DNA of 30,849 nt, taken from the UHGV virus genome UHGV-0006354, one strand, 5' to 3'. The DNA is from a virus. A program made the translations under genes and the position numbers. The notes under the pieces are model-generated. The model was given only the letters and a program-made list of their open reading frames with translations, was not told the DNA's origin and did not search any database. Positions 4,481 to 20,074 of this stretch are shown here, in pieces (position 1 is the first letter of the stretch; the number at the start of each line of letters is the position of its first letter).

Positions 4481-6703
4481 TTGGCTGTTCAATTCGCTTA
4501 TCCGTGGAACGTCCCACGGTCGGCAATCTCCAGCCCATACCTTACTTATGAGCAACAGCATCGCCGCGACCGTATGTTCGCGGCTTTGCTGCATGCAAAA
4601 AAGGTGCTTTCTCTCCAGCCCGACTGCGTGCGGTTAGATGTTTATCGCACTGCTGCGGTGCTGGAGCAAAATCAGGGTAGTCAACGAGCCAATGCATTTT
4701 TAATCAACTTCTGCAAAAAGGCATTGCCGCGTCTTGAACTGGTCGCAAAAAAATACGAATGCGCTGGTATCAATAGCAAGGTATCAACCGCTGTTTTTGG
4801 AAGTCATTTTGATACTCAGCAAATGCAATATCTGTCGTCACGCATGGTTAATATGGTCGCCCGATATAACCGTCTCCCGGATATGTCGCGCGCTGATGTT
4901 GACCTGTTGGCCGCTGATATTGCTAATTTCATTCGTGGTGAACTTGCCAACATTAATGACCACGGATTCGGCGAGCTTAAAACGCTGTACACCTGGTATA
5001 TTCGTGCTGGCTTTATTTCCCTCCAATTTAACGTTATCCCACCACATTGGGAGCGGGTTGAAAAAAAATATGTCGGTGCGGATGAAATCGCACCGGCTAT
5101 CGCCAAAATGTTTAACGATGGGTGGTGGCGCGGTCGTTTGCGCCGTGTTGCAGCTACGTGGCGCGAACACCTGCAAATTGCAGTCGGCAACGTCAGTAAG
5201 AAAAAAAACACTTACGCGAGTAAAAACTGCGTGACTGACTGGCGTGAACAAAAGCGCCGCACTCGTGAATTTCTCAAAGGTCTGGATCTCGAAGACGAAG
5301 ACGGCAACCGTATCAGCCTGATTGAAAAATATGATGGCTCAGTTGCTAACCCTGCGATTCGCCGCTGTGAGCTCATGACCCGCATTCGTGGGTTTGAAAA
5401 CATCTGTAATGAGCTCGGTTATGTCGGTGAGTTTTACACTCTAACCGCGCCGTCAAAATATCACGCCACGACTAAAGCCGGTTACCGTAACAGCAAATGG
5501 AGCGGTGCCAGCCCGGCTGACACGCAAAACTATCTAACCGGTATCTGGGCGCGTATCCGTGCCAAACTACATCGGGAAGATGTCCGTATTTTCGGTATTC
5601 GTGTCGCCGAGCCTCATCACGACGGCACTCCACACTGGCACATGCTGATGTTCATGCTGCCGGAAGATGTTGAATATGTTCGCTCCATCGTCCGTAAATA
5701 CGCATGGAAAGAAGACCGCCACGAACTGAAAAGCGATAAATCCAAAAAAGCACGTTTCCACGCCGAGTCCATTGACCCAGAGAAAGGGAGCGCAACCGGC
5801 TATGTTGCTAAATACATTTCAAAAAATATCGACGGTTATGCTCTCGATGGTGAAACCGATGATGAAAGCGGTGAGCTGCTGAAAGAGACAGCCCCCGCCG
5901 TTTCAGCATGGGCTGCGCGCTGGCACATCCGTCAGTTTCAGTTTATCGGTGGTGCGCCGGTGACGGTTTACCGTGAGTTGCGTCGCCTCGCTGATACCGA
6001 AACCGCGCACGGACTGAGCGTTGAGTTTGCCGCCGTCCATGATGCCGCCGACGCTGGTGACTGGGCTGGTTATGTTAATGCTCAGGGTGGGCCGTTTGTC
6101 CGTCGCGATGATTTACAGGTGCGCACACTGTATGAACCGCGTACCGAGCTTAATCAGTACGGTGAGGAAACAGTATGTATTAAGGGAGTCTACGATTCCT
6201 CCATAGGTGCAGGGAGTCCGATTTTAACCCGGCTCACTCAGTGGAAGATTGTTCCGAAGCGTGCTGTTGATTTGGCCGTTGACCTTCAGGACGGCAAAGC
6301 CGTCCCTCGGAGTTCTGTCAATAACTGTACGGGAAGCGAAAGCGATCCACCGATACTGGATTTAACAAAACCACTGAGTCGGCGTGAAAGACGAGAATTG
6401 ACCAACCGACTCAGGAAGCAAAAGCCAGCAGCACGGCGAAAATTCATCCACGGAACGGATGAGCAAAACGCAGCTATAGCTAAAACTATCGACGAGATAC
6501 ATCTGACAACCGGCATTAATATCAGCCGGGGCGAAGCCCTGCACCTGATGGCCGGTGGTAAAAGTTGTTTTGATGGTAAATGGCTACGCGGAACGGCCAA
6601 AGGAGAAATATTTTCCGCAGCACCATCGCATGAGGCTAAAGCTCGGAAAATCCTTAATCGTGTTGCGGCGATGGCTGAAGCATCAAAACCAATACATGAG
6701 TAA
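4481..6703 (+). CDS. A: Rolling-circle replication initiation endonuclease (P2 gpA family)
   Basis: 740 aa; TTG start with N-terminus MAV..AYPWNVPR like P2 A; conserved EPHHDGTPHWHMLMF HUH-type motif and YVAKYISKNIDGY tyrosine motif. Confidence 0.85.
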   Translation: MAVQFAYPWNVPRSAISSPYLTYEQQHRRDRMFAALLHAKKVLSLQPDCVRLDVYRTAAVLEQNQGSQRANAFLINFCKKALPRLELVAKKYECAGINSKVSTAVFGSHFDTQQMQYLSSRMVNMVARYNRLPDMSRADVDLLAADIANFIRGELANINDHGFGELKTLYTWYIRAGFISLQFNVIPPHWERVEKKYVGADEIAPAIAKMFNDGWWRGRLRRVAATWREHLQIAVGNVSKKKNTYASKNCVTDWREQKRRTREFLKGLDLEDEDGNRISLIEKYDGSVANPAIRRCELMTRIRGFENICNELGYVGEFYTLTAPSKYHATTKAGYRNSKWSGASPADTQNYLTGIWARIRAKLHREDVRIFGIRVAEPHHDGTPHWHMLMFMLPEDVEYVRSIVRKYAWKEDRHELKSDKSKKARFHAESIDPEKGSATGYVAKYISKNIDGYALDGETDDESGELLKETAPAVSAWAARWHIRQFQFIGGAPVTVYRELRRLADTETAHGLSVEFAAVHDAADAGDWAGYVNAQGGPFVRRDDLQVRTLYEPRTELNQYGEETVCIKGVYDSSIGAGSPILTRLTQWKIVPKRAVDLAVDLQDGKAVPRSSVNNCTGSESDPPILDLTKPLSRRERRELTNRLRKQKPAARRKFIHGTDEQNAAIAKTIDEIHLTTGINISRGEALHLMAGGKSCFDGKWLRGTAKGEIFSAAPSHEAKARKILNRVAAMAEASKPIHE

Positions 6704-8533: not shown

Positions 8534-9517
8534 CTAATTTACATGTATGTAGAGTTCACTGTCACTAGACCAGTCGGGGCACTCTAAAGCAAGCCCAAAC
8601 TGCTTGTATATTTCATCAATGACTAATGTTATCTCAAGATAATCATCAAAACCTGTAATGCGTTGATCATTGAATTTTTCATAAAGATTCTGAAATGCAG
8701 CTCCTAACTCTGATAATTGATTCCTTATTTTTGAGTTGGATAGTGTAAGGGCTAGTTTTGGGTCGTATTCATTAATATTGATGTTTAGAGAATGGACGTA
8801 ACCTATCGCATAAGCATAGGAGTTGATAATTAGCTTGAAGCGTTTTTTTGCTTCAAGATACATTTCATTCAGAGAAATATTGCCTCTTTTATAGTTCAGA
8901 GTGAGATTTTCAATCTCGTCAGACACTTCATTTACAACAGTATCAAGATTCTCTAGAAATAAATCGATAGTCTCTTGAGGGGCTGACCACGAAGACATGT
9001 AATTAGCAAGATATTCAGACCATGCACGAGTGGCTGTGATAAGCAGCGCGTCGCCATACTCGTTGACTGTAAAGTTTTGGGCTAAGCATGTTAGTAAGTT
9101 TTTTTCATGTACGTGCACTAACTCATGGTGAATGCGATGGATGACTGCGCGGTATCCTTCTTCATTTAATTTCAGGAAGCTACCATCATTAAAAAGCTCA
9201 CCAAAAAAATCAATAGATAGCACAAGGGTATATTCTTCACATAGCCCATCGCTGCCAATTTTTGTTACTAATTGCCCGACGGCTGCGCCCTGTTTGCTAT
9301 TGGTAAATGAACTAGGGGATTTGTGTTGGTAAATGGAAGTCACATTTTGAAGAGCTTCACTGAAATTATAGGAGACAACCACGCATTTTAATTTTGAGAT
9401 ATCAAGATTGAGATTTTTTGTTAAGACTCGAATAGCTTCTAGCGTGAAGTTACCGATATTATTTGCTTCTTGCTCAGTAGTGAAACCTTCGAGGGTTATT
9501 TTAAAATCAGTTTCCAA
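8534..9517 (-). CDS. AT-rich cargo gene: HExxH-motif (zinc-metallopeptidase-like) protein of unknown function, inserted between cos and portal gene Q
   Basis: 327 aa, TTG start with GGAG Shine-Dalgarno; HELVH at residues 131-135; no signal peptide or transmembrane segment; plausible sigma70 promoter (TTGAAG-17-TATAGT on minus strand, plus about 9557-9585). Confidence 0.8.
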   Translation of the reverse strand: METDFKITLEGFTTEQEANNIGNFTLEAIRVLTKNLNLDISKLKCVVVSYNFSEALQNVTSIYQHKSPSSFTNSKQGAAVGQLVTKIGSDGLCEEYTLVLSIDFFGELFNDGSFLKLNEEGYRAVIHRIHHELVHVHEKNLLTCLAQNFTVNEYGDALLITATRAWSEYLANYMSSWSAPQETIDLFLENLDTVVNEVSDEIENLTLNYKRGNISLNEMYLEAKKRFKLIINSYAYAIGYVHSLNININEYDPKLALTLSNSKIRNQLSELGAAFQNLYEKFNDQRITGFDDYLEITLVIDEIYKQFGLALECPDWSSDSELYIHVN

Positions 9518-9615: not shown

Positions 9616-10662
9616 TTATTCCGGGTTGTCGAGGGTGTACTCTTTGAACCTGATGACCTCCATGCCGAGCCAGTCGTTTACCTCCCTGAACCTGTCCTGC
9701 AGGGGTGACAGCTCGTTACGCACGAATACCTTTGCCACCTTCTCAACGTCGCCGAGTGAGCCGATATTCTCGGGCTTGCCGCCCATGAGCTGGAACGGCA
9801 CGCGGTGCGCGTCCATCAGGTCGGCGGCGCTGGCTTTCTTAATGTTGAAAAAGTCATCCTTTGTGGCGACCTCGCTCAGTGGCACGATTTTGATGCCGTC
9901 CGGTTTTCCGCCGGGGGCGTAGAAAAACAGGTTCTTAAAGTTGCCGAGTCCCTTCGAGTTACGCATCGCCTCGCGCAGCGATTCGACGTCGGTCGCACTT
10001 TGCGCCGGGTCAGTCACATACATGATGTAGCCTGCGTGCGCGCCGTTCTGATAATACTTGCGGCGGAACAGCGTCGCGGATTCATTCAGCCAGGCGGAAT
10101 TAAGCGCGCTGAGATATTCCGGCAGACCGTAAATCTCCTGATTAATGTCGGGCTCCAGCAGGTGAAACACGGTATCAGGCGCGAACTCGTGCGGCTGGGT
10201 GAAGTTTTCCACAAACCAGAAAATCGAATCGTCGACTCCGCGTCGGGTGTATTTGGCTGGCGAGGCCAGCAGTTTGATTAACTGGCCGGTGACGCTGTGG
10301 CGCTGCTCAAGAAAGGCGTTACCGAACACCAGATAATCGAGCGCAAAGCGGCTGAAATCCTGACGGGATAACAACGGGTGCGGAATGTAGGTGCTCGCGA
10401 GCACGTTACGCTTAACATAAATTGGCGAGCTGTGATGCACGGCAGAGCGCAGGCTCTTTGCCAGCCCTGAGAAGCTGACCGGCGGCTCGTACCATTTGCC
10501 GTTACTGATGCACTCGACGTAATCCAGAATGTCGCGCTTATCGAGTACCGGCACCGGCTCGCCGAAGGTGAACGCTGTCGTTTTTGGCGGTGCGCTGGCG
10601 GTCAGTTGTTGTGGTTTGCTGGCCTTTTGTGCGTTGGCTTTACGGGATTTTTGTTTACCCAT
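9616..10662 (-). CDS. Q: Portal protein (P2 gpQ family)
   Basis: 348 aa (P2 Q 344 aa); Lys-rich N-terminus MGKQKSRKANAQKASK; position between cos and terminase. Confidence 0.9.
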   Translation of the reverse strand: MGKQKSRKANAQKASKPQQLTASAPPKTTAFTFGEPVPVLDKRDILDYVECISNGKWYEPPVSFSGLAKSLRSAVHHSSPIYVKRNVLASTYIPHPLLSRQDFSRFALDYLVFGNAFLEQRHSVTGQLIKLLASPAKYTRRGVDDSIFWFVENFTQPHEFAPDTVFHLLEPDINQEIYGLPEYLSALNSAWLNESATLFRRKYYQNGAHAGYIMYVTDPAQSATDVESLREAMRNSKGLGNFKNLFFYAPGGKPDGIKIVPLSEVATKDDFFNIKKASAADLMDAHRVPFQLMGGKPENIGSLGDVEKVAKVFVRNELSPLQDRFREVNDWLGMEVIRFKEYTLDNPE

Positions 10663-17496: not shown

Positions 17497-17926
17497 CGCC
17501 GTGCCGCAGCTCCGAAATAATCCCGATATGCTGCGCCTTTTTGCCGACAACGGCCATACCGATTCCCGACTGGCGAGCTCGCTGTCGTTTGAAAAGGTGT
17601 ACGTGCTTAACGTGGTGGTGACCGACTTCACCGGTGACCTTGATTTGATATTCGTGCCGGTGCAGGCGTGGCTGCGTGAACATCAGCCGGACATTATGAC
17701 CACCGACGACGGGCGGGAAAAAGGATTCACCTGGATTATTGATATCAATAACGACGATTCGCTCGATATCAGTATCAGCCTGAGGCTCACCGAGCGCACG
17801 CTCGTCAAAGAGGTCGACGGCGCGCTGCACGTCAGCTATGCCCCTGAGCAGCCACTGCCTGAGCCGGTGACGCGCCCGGTCGAGCTGTACGTTAACGGCG
17901 AACTGGTGAGTAAGTGGGATGAGTGA
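17459..17926 (+). CDS. R: Tail completion protein R
   Basis: MQKHKSLRKAL... aligns with P2 R start; alternative ATG at 17450. Confidence 0.8.
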   Translation: MQKHKSLRKALINAVPQLRNNPDMLRLFADNGHTDSRLASSLSFEKVYVLNVVVTDFTGDLDLIFVPVQAWLREHQPDIMTTDDGREKGFTWIIDINNDDSLDISISLRLTERTLVKEVDGALHVSYAPEQPLPEPVTRPVELYVNGELVSKWDE

Positions 17927-18374
17927 ATTAACCGCGCTGCAGGAACGCCTTGCCGGTCTGATTGCCAGCCTGTCACCAGCGGCACGTCGGCAAATGGCGG
18001 TTGAGGTTGCGAAAAAGCTGCGTACCAGTCAGCAACAGCGTATCAAGCGCCAGCAGGCACCCGACGGCACCCCGTATGCGGCACGAAAGCGCCAGCCGGT
18101 GCGGAGCAAGAAAGGTCGGATTAAACGTGAAATGTTCACCAAACTGCGCACCAGTCGCTTTATGAAAGCCAAAGGCAGCGACAGTGCGGCGGTGGTGGAG
18201 TTTACCGGCAAGGTGCAGCGCATGGCGCGGGTGCATCAGTACGGCCTAAAAGACCGGCCAAACCGCAACAGCCGGGATGTGCAGTACGAGGCGCGACCGT
18301 TGCTCGGATACTCTTCATCAGACTTACAAAAAGTTGAGAGTTTAATTATGGATGCTTTATGTCAACGCCATTGA
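17919..18374 (+). CDS. S: Tail completion / virion morphogenesis protein S
   Basis: 151 aa (P2 S 150 aa); synteny R-S. Confidence 0.8.
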   Translation: MSELTALQERLAGLIASLSPAARRQMAVEVAKKLRTSQQQRIKRQQAPDGTPYAARKRQPVRSKKGRIKREMFTKLRTSRFMKAKGSDSAAVVEFTGKVQRMARVHQYGLKDRPNRNSRDVQYEARPLLGYSSSDLQKVESLIMDALCQRH

Positions 18375-18382
18375 CTTTGGAT

Positions 18383-18411
18383 TCGCTGAGAATTATTATA
18401 TAACTCAGCGA
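18383..18411. promoter_or_regulatory. Inverted repeat (8-bp stem, AT-rich 13-nt loop) in the convergent S / cargo-gene intergenic region
   Basis: TCGCTGAG-AATTATTATATAA-CTCAGCGA; no flanking T-tract on either strand. Confidence 0.3.
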
Positions 18412-18447
18412 TAGAGGTGGACTGGTGTCTAGGTGGGCGTGCCCACT

Positions 18448-18475
18448 GAGTTGGGTTCGATTCCCTAACCTCGTA
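18448..18475 (+). other. tRNA 3'-end-like fragment (T-arm plus partial acceptor), not a complete tRNA
   Basis: GGGTTCGATTCCC T-loop motif at 18453-18465, followed by ACCTCGT without CCA; no matching 5' acceptor, D or anticodon arm upstream; overlaps the cargo gene stop. Confidence 0.3.
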
Positions 18476-19301
18476 TTATTCCTCTCGATATTTTTATTGC
18501 TGGGTTTTCCTTTCTTATTTCATTTTTAATTTGCTCATCACAAATTAAATAATCTATGTTTTTTGCTTTAACAAGTTCTTTAACGTTAATGTTAATTGAA
18601 TTTAATAGATTTGCATTCCGCATGTTAGCCCCTTCATAAGTAACGGATTTAAAATCACATCCTTTTAATATGCAGCTTTTCATTTCGCTATCTGTAAAAT
18701 ACCCCCCTTCAAAACTGCAGTTTTCGAAAGTGACATTTTGAAAACATGTATTAAATGCCTTAATATTTCTTAGCTTGCAGTTTTTGAATTTAACACTCTT
18801 AACTCTATTGCCTGTAATATTTAGAGCTTGAATTGTGCAATTATCGAAAGAACAATCTCTAATGTATGATTCGCTCATATTCAAGCCGGTTAAGTCAGCG
18901 TCTTTAAAGTGTAAATATTTGATAGTGGACATTTTATCAAGTTCAATCCTTGGAACTTGAATGTTATATATTCCTTTAGCATTTAACTGACGTATGATTT
19001 TTATCTTCATAATATTCAGTTCTGCAGAAGAATGCTTTGCCAGATTTTCAAGATCTTCAATTAGTTCGTGAATAGCATCTTTATTTTGCCTTTTATTTTC
19101 AAAATAGTAAAGAATCACACCCAAAACAAGAAAGTCTAAAATTGAAGAATTTGCATTAACAAGAAAATTCTCCATGAATTTTGAGTTGTAGTTATCATTA
19201 TAAACAGACAACCCTACTATAAGCCCGGAGTATAAAAAAAAGATACCTATAATATATTTCATATTGCTTATTGTACGCCTAAAAGATGAAGTTCTTTTCA
19301 T
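18465..19301 (-). CDS. AT-rich cargo gene: membrane-anchored pentapeptide-repeat protein, inserted between S and V
   Basis: 279 aa from ATG 19299-19301 (track ORF extends to GTG 19346); basic N-terminus then two hydrophobic helices (KYIIGIFFLYSGLIVGLSVY, ILDFLVLGVILYYF); C-terminal repeats of the form ..NC..F.. (DNCTI, KNCKL, ENCSF, KGCDF). Confidence 0.75.
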   Translation of the reverse strand: MKRTSSFRRTISNMKYIIGIFFLYSGLIVGLSVYNDNYNSKFMENFLVNANSSILDFLVLGVILYYFENKRQNKDAIHELIEDLENLAKHSSAELNIMKIKIIRQLNAKGIYNIQVPRIELDKMSTIKYLHFKDADLTGLNMSESYIRDCSFDNCTIQALNITGNRVKSVKFKNCKLRNIKAFNTCFQNVTFENCSFEGGYFTDSEMKSCILKGCDFKSVTYEGANMRNANLLNSININVKELVKAKNIDYLICDEQIKNEIRKENPAIKISRGIIRG

Positions 19302-19438
19302 TACTACCTGCCATATGTTTTGTGTGATTTTCGAATGAGTCAACACTCAAATGATACATGAATGCACACCGAATTGTGTAGAAGAGCATACAGCTGAATC
19401 GTTTTGCTCTTGGCTTTAACAATCGGCATTCTTTGTTC

Positions 19439-20074
19439 ATGAACACATTAAACACCATTCAAGAGTTAGCACGTGCCATTCGCAACCTCATCCGCTCAGG
19501 CGTGGTGACTGAGGTCGATACTGTGCAGGGGCTGTGCCGCGTACAAAGCGGCGGGATCCAGACTACATGGCTGAACTGGCTGACCACCCGCGCCGGTCGT
19601 TCGCGGACGTGGTGGGCTCCCTCGGTCGGTGAGCAGGTTCTGCTGCTGGCAATCGGTGGCGAGCTTGATACCGCTTTCGTGCTGCCGGGTATTTTCTCCG
19701 ACGATAACCCCGCCCCGTCTGCCTCGGCGGATGCGTGGCATGTGGCTTTCCCTGATGGTGCGGTCATTGAGTACGAGCCCGAAACCGGCGCGCTGACGGT
19801 CAGCGGCATAAAAACGGCCGACGTGACGGCATCGGAGTCCATCACCGCAACCGTACCGCTGGTACTGGTGAAAGCCTCGACCAGTATCACCCTCGACACC
19901 CCGGAGGTGATTTGCACCAATAAGCTAACGACGGCGACGCTTGAGGTGCAGAAAGGCGGCAAGATGAGCGGCAATATCGAACATACCGGCGGGTCACTGT
20001 CGTCTAATGGCAAGGTACTCCACACCCATAAACACCCGGGCGACAGCGGCGGGCAAACGGGGGCACCGTTATGA
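19439..20074 (+). CDS. V: Baseplate spike / assembly protein V
   Basis: MNTLNTIQELARAIRNL... and RSRTWWAPSVGEQVL match P2 V; track start 19433 is a TTG two codons upstream. Confidence 0.85.
   Translation: MNTLNTIQELARAIRNLIRSGVVTEVDTVQGLCRVQSGGIQTTWLNWLTTRAGRSRTWWAPSVGEQVLLLAIGGELDTAFVLPGIFSDDNPAPSASADAWHVAFPDGAVIEYEPETGALTVSGIKTADVTASESITATVPLVLVKASTSITLDTPEVICTNKLTTATLEVQKGGKMSGNIEHTGGSLSSNGKVLHTHKHPGDSGGQTGAPL

Follow-up and report, generated by a model that had tools for sequence, protein, structure and literature searches.

Why should a phage of the P2 family carry, between two of its tail genes, an antisense gene for a pentapeptide-repeat protein with a predicted membrane anchor? This question is raised by the virus genome UHGV-0006354, a stretch of 30,849 nucleotides referred to as the window throughout, in which an open reading frame (ORF) of low GC content is found on the minus strand, flanked by the genes S (tail completion) and V (spike) (Table 1). 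Our best guess is that the encoded protein would be produced in the lysogen and would act against superinfecting phages at the inner membrane, either by exclusion or by abortive infection, and we assign a probability of about 0.4 to this anti-phage role. We documented the anatomy of the protein, its family membership and its association with mobile elements, and from these we infer expression in the lysogen, activity against phages and a possible channel mechanism.

A cargo gene in the slot between S and V

The window comes from a 186-like phage belonging to the P2 family (Peduoviridae) and is 99.8% identical to Escherichia phage vB_EcoM-613R3 across the tested region. The low-GC antisense ORF described in the initial annotation is indeed present, showing a GC content of 0.30 compared to 0.52 for the window and ~0.58–0.60 for the flanks. 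It does not interrupt an operon, which corrects the picture of an interrupted tail gene cluster given there, but is placed in the gap between the end of the O operon and the pV promoter. The late-activator site of this promoter agrees in position with the annotated pV activator site of P2 and forms the right edge of the inserted DNA. The statement that the S/V junction is the position of P2 orf30 proved correct: orf30 is likewise antisense and shares the slot, which lies between the O-operon terminator and the pV activator site. The orf30 locus is one of three horizontally acquired variable regions in P2-like phages (PMC3091744). The two genes share only their position: P2 Orf30 is unlike the protein of the window in lacking any Pfam domain and any pentapeptide repeats, and because BLASTP returned an E-value of only 0.39, we rejected homology between them.

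Close relatives align to 72% of the query in two pieces, and the approximately 1 kb present here is missing from Escherichia phage Midge, many Yersinia phages, Erwinia phage EtG and phage 186. To describe the slot more broadly, we surveyed the 80 viral contigs whose V genes are closest to that of the window. The gap between S and V amounted to 68–86 nt in 57 of these contigs, and low-GC inserts of 0.8–1.7 kb (GC 0.32–0.41) were present in the remaining 23. With its foreign composition, absence from viable relatives and inter-operon location, the gene is, to judge from the sequence, a horizontally acquired accessory ('moron') gene in the orf30 variable slot of a 186/P2-like prophage.

Only three of the 23 inserts contained a gene of the type found in the window, while the others represented at least 11 unrelated cassettes, mostly in antisense orientation. 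The observed cassettes comprise P2 Orf30-like and HNH-like genes, a pair coding for a HIT protein and a transmembrane (TM) protein, UPF0489, a multi-TM protein and several proteins without matches. Three further cassettes are of the defence type, namely PIN_12, a PD-T4-7-like gene (PADLOC, 4.8e-9) and an AAA+TIR cassette (PDC-S59, 1.5e-19). The cassettes other than the window-type gene were recorded at loci L033/L036, L034, L041, L042, L043, L047/L076, L056/L057, L083/L096/L097, L084 and L092, and several of them are candidate defence genes.

Protein architecture, family and genomic contexts

The gene is annotated in existing entries as coding for a pentapeptide repeat-containing protein. ATG 19301 is the likely start codon, because it is used both in the GenBank entry of phage vB_EcoM-613R3 and in the 278-aa cluster representative P0001; residue numbers nevertheless follow the maximal ORF of 293 amino acids (aa) throughout. 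In alignments with longer homologs, conservation extends to residues upstream of M29, and some homologs of 324–339 aa (P0005, P0007, P0008, P0017 and P0026) carry an extra N-terminal extension of ~60 residues ahead of the basic segment and TM1. Intact homologs were found from 99% down to ~32% identity. The ratio of nonsynonymous to synonymous substitution rates (dN/dS) ranged from 0.05 to 0.14 between alleles; comparing the window allele with two Klebsiella-type alleles resulted in 0.05–0.09 overall and <0.25 in each region, although these regional values are rough, since dS is saturated in many comparisons. The gene is therefore functional and under strong purifying selection. Conservation is highest in TM2 and the linker and lowest in the N-terminus, TM1 and the C-terminal cap.

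The basic N-terminus and the two TM helices proposed in the initial annotation were borne out by a charge count, with a net charge of about +4 to +5 for the segment before TM1, and by hydropathy. Because of this basic N-terminus, the short loop of ~7 residues between the TM segments and the basic residues following TM2, an N-in, C-in topology is predicted for the hairpin. The Pfam scan proposed for the repeats yielded matches above the gathering cut-offs for Pentapeptide_4 (1.9e-16) and Pentapeptide (8.4e-10), with bit scores of 60.3 for PF13599 (cut-off 38), 38.5 for PF00805 (cut-off 20.2) and 35.7 for PF13576 (cut-off 27). Structure prediction likewise returned the expected right-handed quadrilateral beta-helix: the AlphaFold2 (AF2) model consists of a long helical hairpin, a further helix and the beta-helix, with a mean predicted local distance difference test score (pLDDT) of 82.4 for the whole protein and values >90 for the beta-helix (residues ~130–270). 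The repeats had been described as having Cys or Phe at the centre, which holds for Phe in most repeats, whereas Cys is mostly located two residues ahead of the centre. The repeat domain contains eight Cys residues, which fits a cytoplasmic location, and carries a net charge of +6 at an isoelectric point (pI) of 8.9, with values of 8.2–9.4 among members of its subfamily, as calculated from sequence-level charge rather than from a surface map.

The proximity to lysis and tail genes and a two-TM topology resembling that of class II holins could be taken to indicate a structural, assembly or lysis function for the phage, or else the ORF might be a non-coding artefact. We regard this as extremely improbable: the gene is not present in 57 of the 80 close P2-like relatives, which are viable phages, it runs antisense to the late operons and differs from them in GC content, a product of 278 aa with a large folded domain is unlike a holin, and homologs occur in non-phage core genomes. 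An artefact ORF is excluded by the purifying selection.

PHROG 12514, whose function is unannotated, matches the protein over its full length (3.5e-142). With the N-terminal module alone (TM hairpin and linker) as a profile, a search of 1.84 billion cluster representatives retrieved 736 proteins at E ≤0.001 and 85 at E ≤1e-10; the matches listed are mostly of 250–340 aa, and those inspected share the same architecture. In a Pfam scan of 30 diverse family members, all 30 contained pentapeptide repeats, and no Pfam family was assigned to the N-terminal module in any of them. This module was also without a match in the PDB, searched as sequence and as profile, and in PADLOC, and no experimental work on the family came up in our searches of the literature. 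A family-wide motif in TM2 contains an acidic residue, which was present in all 142 members scored (136 Asp, 6 Glu). On the same face of the helix, seven residues before it, stands Glu or Asn; position −5 is His or Asn, and Gly follows five residues downstream in 128 of the 142 members. Two subfamilies are recognised by this motif, an 'E...H' type with 81 members and an 'N...N' type with 39, and the protein of the window belongs to the latter (N64, N66, D71).

We examined the genomic context of fourteen N...N alleles, 13 of which were located in prophages or beside an integrase. Ten of the 14 occupied the S/V junction of P2-like prophages, including two whose products are only 35–37% identical to the window protein; the hosts were E. 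coli, Klebsiella, Salmonella Java, Enterobacter cloacae and E. hormaechei, in addition to IMG/VR contigs. The other contexts were a P2-like prophage in which the gene lies terminally, beside ogr, a terminal site adjoining umuDC in a non-P2 prophage, an island edge adjoining an integrase, and a chromosomal site in Paenibacillus adjoining an RHS toxin. No partner gene was conserved across the 14 contexts, which indicates a single-gene module. The gene is rare in E. coli, being present in 14 of 5426 complete genomes.

The alleles appear to be older than the phages carrying them, because the dS of the cargo gene (~1.2–2.1, saturated) is far above those of the flanking genes S (0.48) and V (0.60), which were obtained from one and the same phage pair. 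This age difference suggests that alleles are exchanged by recombination at the slot. Against locus L001, the dS of the cargo gene (window positions 18465–19301) was ~2, several-fold above those of S and V (~0.5–0.6). A further observation concerns a degraded P2-like prophage of Enterobacter cloacae (L183; CP009756, 2708541–2723560), from which the genes for tail fibre, sheath and tube have disappeared and in which J is truncated, but which has kept the cargo gene at the S/V slot. Selection acting on the cargo gene irrespective of whether the phage is viable could account for this situation.

A possible anti-phage role at the membrane and its alternatives

If the protein acts against phages, its gene would be transcribed in the lysogen from a promoter of its own, and the beta-helix would be a sensor in the cytoplasm whose ligand is either a polyanion, e.g. 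nucleic acid, or a phage protein. The effector would consist of the TM hairpins in oligomerised form, acting by ion conduction or membrane perturbation, and the superinfecting phage would be aborted or excluded at the inner membrane. An exclusion or defence role is plausible because the subfamily is found almost exclusively on prophages and other mobile elements and occupies a slot that also receives defence-type cassettes. The content of the slot amounts to guilt by location, which supports a role in phage defence or in competition without proving it. As far as is known, old, tin and Z/fun, the non-essential P2 genes that have been characterised, all act in phage exclusion.

Regarding expression, a consensus scan yielded a putative sigma-70-type promoter upstream of the gene, whose −35 hexamer, TACACA, coincides in part with one half-site for the pV activator. 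A −10-like hexamer (TATCAT, TATGAT, TATAAT or TGTAAT) follows TACACA at a constant spacing of 18 nt across divergent alleles. Such a pattern would agree with a promoter belonging to the gene itself, divergent from pV and possibly coupled to binding of the late activator. As to the mechanism, the specific version involving a gated channel seems doubtful to us. So does its most explicit form, a single polypeptide acting as sensor and effector, in which the basic beta-helix, on binding a polyanion or protein derived from the phage, would gate a new two-TM ion module around the invariant Asp with no partner enzyme involved.

Several observations weigh against the anti-phage role or against parts of it. 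Promoter-like matches in the upstream region were no commoner than in shuffled sequence, and the dN/dS values did not point to diversifying selection in the repeat domain. A partner gene from which a gating ligand could come, the part played by HalB for HalA in the Hailong system discussed below, was not present in any of the 14 contexts, and a search of PADLOC-DB v2, which predates Hailong, produced no convincing match to a defence model beyond a weak one to SLATT. The basic charge of the repeat domain may in part be due to the Lys-rich codon bias of a gene with 30% GC. To these points has to be added the distribution of the E...H subfamily. Scanning 100,044 species genomes with an alignment of its EAHG clade yielded 235 loci, which were concentrated in Cytophagales. 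The 57 long loci among them exhibited a common synteny of pdxA, ksgA, mgtE, sometimes a 2-hydroxyacid dehydrogenase gene, the gene itself, greA and a HIT gene. With this sister clade representing a syntenic core gene, the architecture is not inherently anti-phage and serves a cellular function in other settings.

In 51 of the 57 Cytophagales loci (loci among L104–L182), the Mg2+ transporter gene mgtE is located upstream on the same strand, an adjacency which hints at an ion-related cellular role and may also be a matter of clade-specific synteny. The gene could accordingly be a moron concerned with host physiology, retaining an ancestral cellular function such as conducting cations or regulating transport, from which the lysogen benefits without any action on phages. 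The core status and mgtE neighbourhood of the sister clade, the strong purifying selection with no diversifying signal and the lack of a match to known defence models are in line with such a function, and the conserved intramembrane E/N...H/N...D motif suggests ion binding. We nevertheless consider it unlikely, though it is the alternative we rate highest, because the subfamily of the window is known almost only from prophages and mobile elements and recurs in cargo slots that also receive defence-type genes, because the gene is rare in E. coli, and because the mgtE synteny comes from one clade and may reflect phylogenetic inertia. The phage copies appear to stem from a lineage captured by mobile elements.

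Returning to an action on phages, the initial annotation had suggested superinfection exclusion or a block of DNA entry, i.e. a tethered beta-helix preventing entry or establishment of phage DNA at the cytoplasmic face without killing the cell. Small inner-membrane proteins are well known as exclusion factors, such as Imm of T4, SieA of P22 and gp15 of HK97. The predicted inner-membrane location and the nature of the gene as prophage cargo in a defence-type slot agree with this part of the suggestion, and incoming DNA or ejected proteins could be ligands of a basic beta-helix. The part that fares less well is a classical block from outside, to which a periplasmic loop of ~7 residues and a cytoplasmic repeat domain are a poor fit; any block would have to act from the cytoplasmic side. 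Moreover, conservation peaks in the intramembrane acidic/polar motif and the linker, as would suit a protein active inside the membrane better than a passive plug, and the core-genome relatives occur in contexts unrelated to phages. We therefore regard classical exclusion as improbable, slightly more so than a role in host physiology.

The annotation of the gene, the variable slot and a published membrane pentapeptide effector, HalA, are already known, while the large family of fixed architecture, its deep tie to the S/V slot of P2-like phages and the defence-type content of this slot are new. Should the gene be anti-phage, it would be a defence at the membrane encoded by one gene and built on a new membrane module, and the S/V (orf30) junction would deserve notice as a hotspot of defence-type cargo alongside the better-studied ones. 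If the gated sensor-effector reading were true, the core relatives in Cytophagales would constitute a new class of pentapeptide-gated cation channels. Regardless of a function in defence, the invariant intramembrane acidic residue offers a testable handle on membrane-tethered pentapeptide-repeat proteins.

Two further features of the window are worth recording. The final codons of the gene (..R-G-stop) fall within a tRNA-like element, which accompanies the gene in every context, covering E. coli, Klebsiella, Salmonella, Citrobacter and IMG/VR and including the non-P2 prophage; it is also present in loci L001, L005, L008, L019 and L020. Its RNAalifold consensus is a closed three-arm fold with 3 compensatory pairs. 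A real tRNA was rejected, because the element gave no ARAGORN call, no Rfam match at E ≤1 and no blastn match to an E. coli tRNA. It could be the remnant of an att site at a tRNA 3' end, left over from a donor island, or it could be a functional RNA or an insulator against read-through from the O operon. In the L019 allele (IMGVR_UViG_2627853930_000003, ~4785–4830), the start of the element (CGAGGTTAGGGAAT) is found in three tandem copies. The second feature is another low-GC (~0.39–0.44) cargo ORF of 327 aa at window positions 8534–9517 on the minus strand, located between a replication gene (4481–6703) and the portal gene (9616–10662) in the classical TO-region hotspot of P2 next to cos; this ORF had no match in PADLOC.

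Table 1. Coordinates of the features at the S/V junction of the window (residue numbers refer to the maximal ORF).
Feature	Position	Strand	Remarks
Tail-completion gene S	17919..18374	+	left flank
Low-GC insert	18375..19374		~1.0 kb, GC 0.32; missing from close relatives, where the S-V gap is 68–86 nt
tRNA-like element	18410..18472	+	~65 nt; overlaps stop codon of the gene; T-arm-like GGGTTCGATTCCC motif
Maximal ORF	18465..19346	−	293 aa; GTG start at 19346 (ORF list)
Coding sequence of the membrane-anchored pentapeptide-repeat protein	18465..19301	−	278 aa from ATG 19301 (likely start); stop TAG 18465–18467
C-terminal cap and helix, residues 271–293	18468..18536	−	AF2 helix 271–280; alignment of 3' flanks
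Pentapeptide-repeat right-handed quadrilateral beta-helix, residues 131–270	18537..18956	−	predicted cytoplasmic; basic
Cytoplasmic helical linker, residues 83–130	18957..19100	−	alignments; pLDDT 88–94; dN 0.03–0.08
TM helix 2, residues 60–82	19101..19169	−	hydropathy; polar stripe N64/S68/D71; invariant alignment columns
TM helix 1, residues 30–50	19197..19259	−	Kyte-Doolittle window up to 1.93; a helix in each of the two AF2 models
Putative sigma-70-type promoter (TACACA, 18 nt, TATCAT)	19351..19380	−	consensus scan; inferred
TGT-N12-ACA late-activator (Ogr/B-type) site of the pV promoter	19375..19392	+	read from sequence; intact
Spike gene V	19433..20074	+	right flank

Comparison with known systems

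The closest relatives of the protein are the members of its own family with two TM helices, linker and pentapeptide repeats (PHROG 12514 and the 'EAHG' clade of Cytophagales), with which it shares the architecture, the TM2 motif [E/N]-A-[H/N]-[G/S]-x-x-x-D...G and the linker. The Cytophagales clade differs in that it is a core gene in conserved chromosomal synteny and that its repeat domain is acidic to neutral, whereas the N...N subfamily of the window is mobile and basic.

Soluble pentapeptide-repeat proteins such as MfpA, Qnr and AlbG/McbG are a second group for comparison, and the initial annotation had started from the DNA mimicry of Qnr and MfpA. The best structural matches indeed include MfpA, Qnr and AlbG, and the weak NCBIfam matches to MfpA and Qnr (~1e-6) could be read as indicating a membrane-tethered DNA mimic shielding gyrase or topoisomerase against toxins or quinolones. 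Mimics of the Qnr/MfpA type are anionic. The protein of the window is instead membrane-anchored, its repeat domain is basic, it shows no sign of the C-terminal dimer interface of the soluble mimics, and its scores are far below the family cut-offs (28.1 bits vs. 360 for MfpA and 27.3 vs. 240 for Qnr). The premise of DNA mimicry is weakened by these properties, and we consider such a protective function very unlikely.

Among membrane effectors, the SLATT proteins with two TM helices, e.g. the DRT-associated SLATT, have in common with the protein of the window an N-terminal TM hairpin followed by a cytoplasmic helical region, but the latter is not coupled to an enzyme generating a nucleotide signal. 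PADLOC returned a weak SLATT match (6.4e-5). Because its RTasSLATT model matched only three of 11 close and one of 27 diverse family members and no Pfam SLATT match was obtained, homology to SLATT was rejected.

The nearest precedent is HalA of the Hailong system (PDB 9nyi; NCBIfam NF051894), a published membrane pentapeptide-repeat anti-phage effector, whose architecture we took from matches in PDB and NCBIfam and from the description in a preprint. HalA combines pentapeptide repeats with an IRK potassium-channel domain, has a nucleotidyltransferase as partner (preprint) and depolarises the membrane in defence. The remark in the initial annotation that a membrane-tethered protein of this kind had not been seen described therefore holds only in part, since HalA is already published, although its domain order and membrane module differ: the repeats of HalA come first and are followed by the channel, whereas the protein of the window starts with its two-TM module and continues with the repeats. 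Its N-terminal module shows no similarity to 9nyi, either as sequence or as profile, and the score with NF051894 was only 46.9 bits compared to a cut-off of 250, with profile positions 28–153 of 338 matched, i.e. the repeat region only. Even the beta-helix is matched better by generic pentapeptide proteins than by HalA. A HalB nucleotidyltransferase was found neither next to the gene in the window, whose neighbours are S and V, nor in the 14 contexts examined. We thus rejected membership in the HalA family, given the low score, the differing domain order and membrane module and the lack of a HalB partner. If the protein of the window nevertheless works as a sensor and effector in a single polypeptide, it would parallel the DNA-gated HalA channel while using an unrelated membrane domain.

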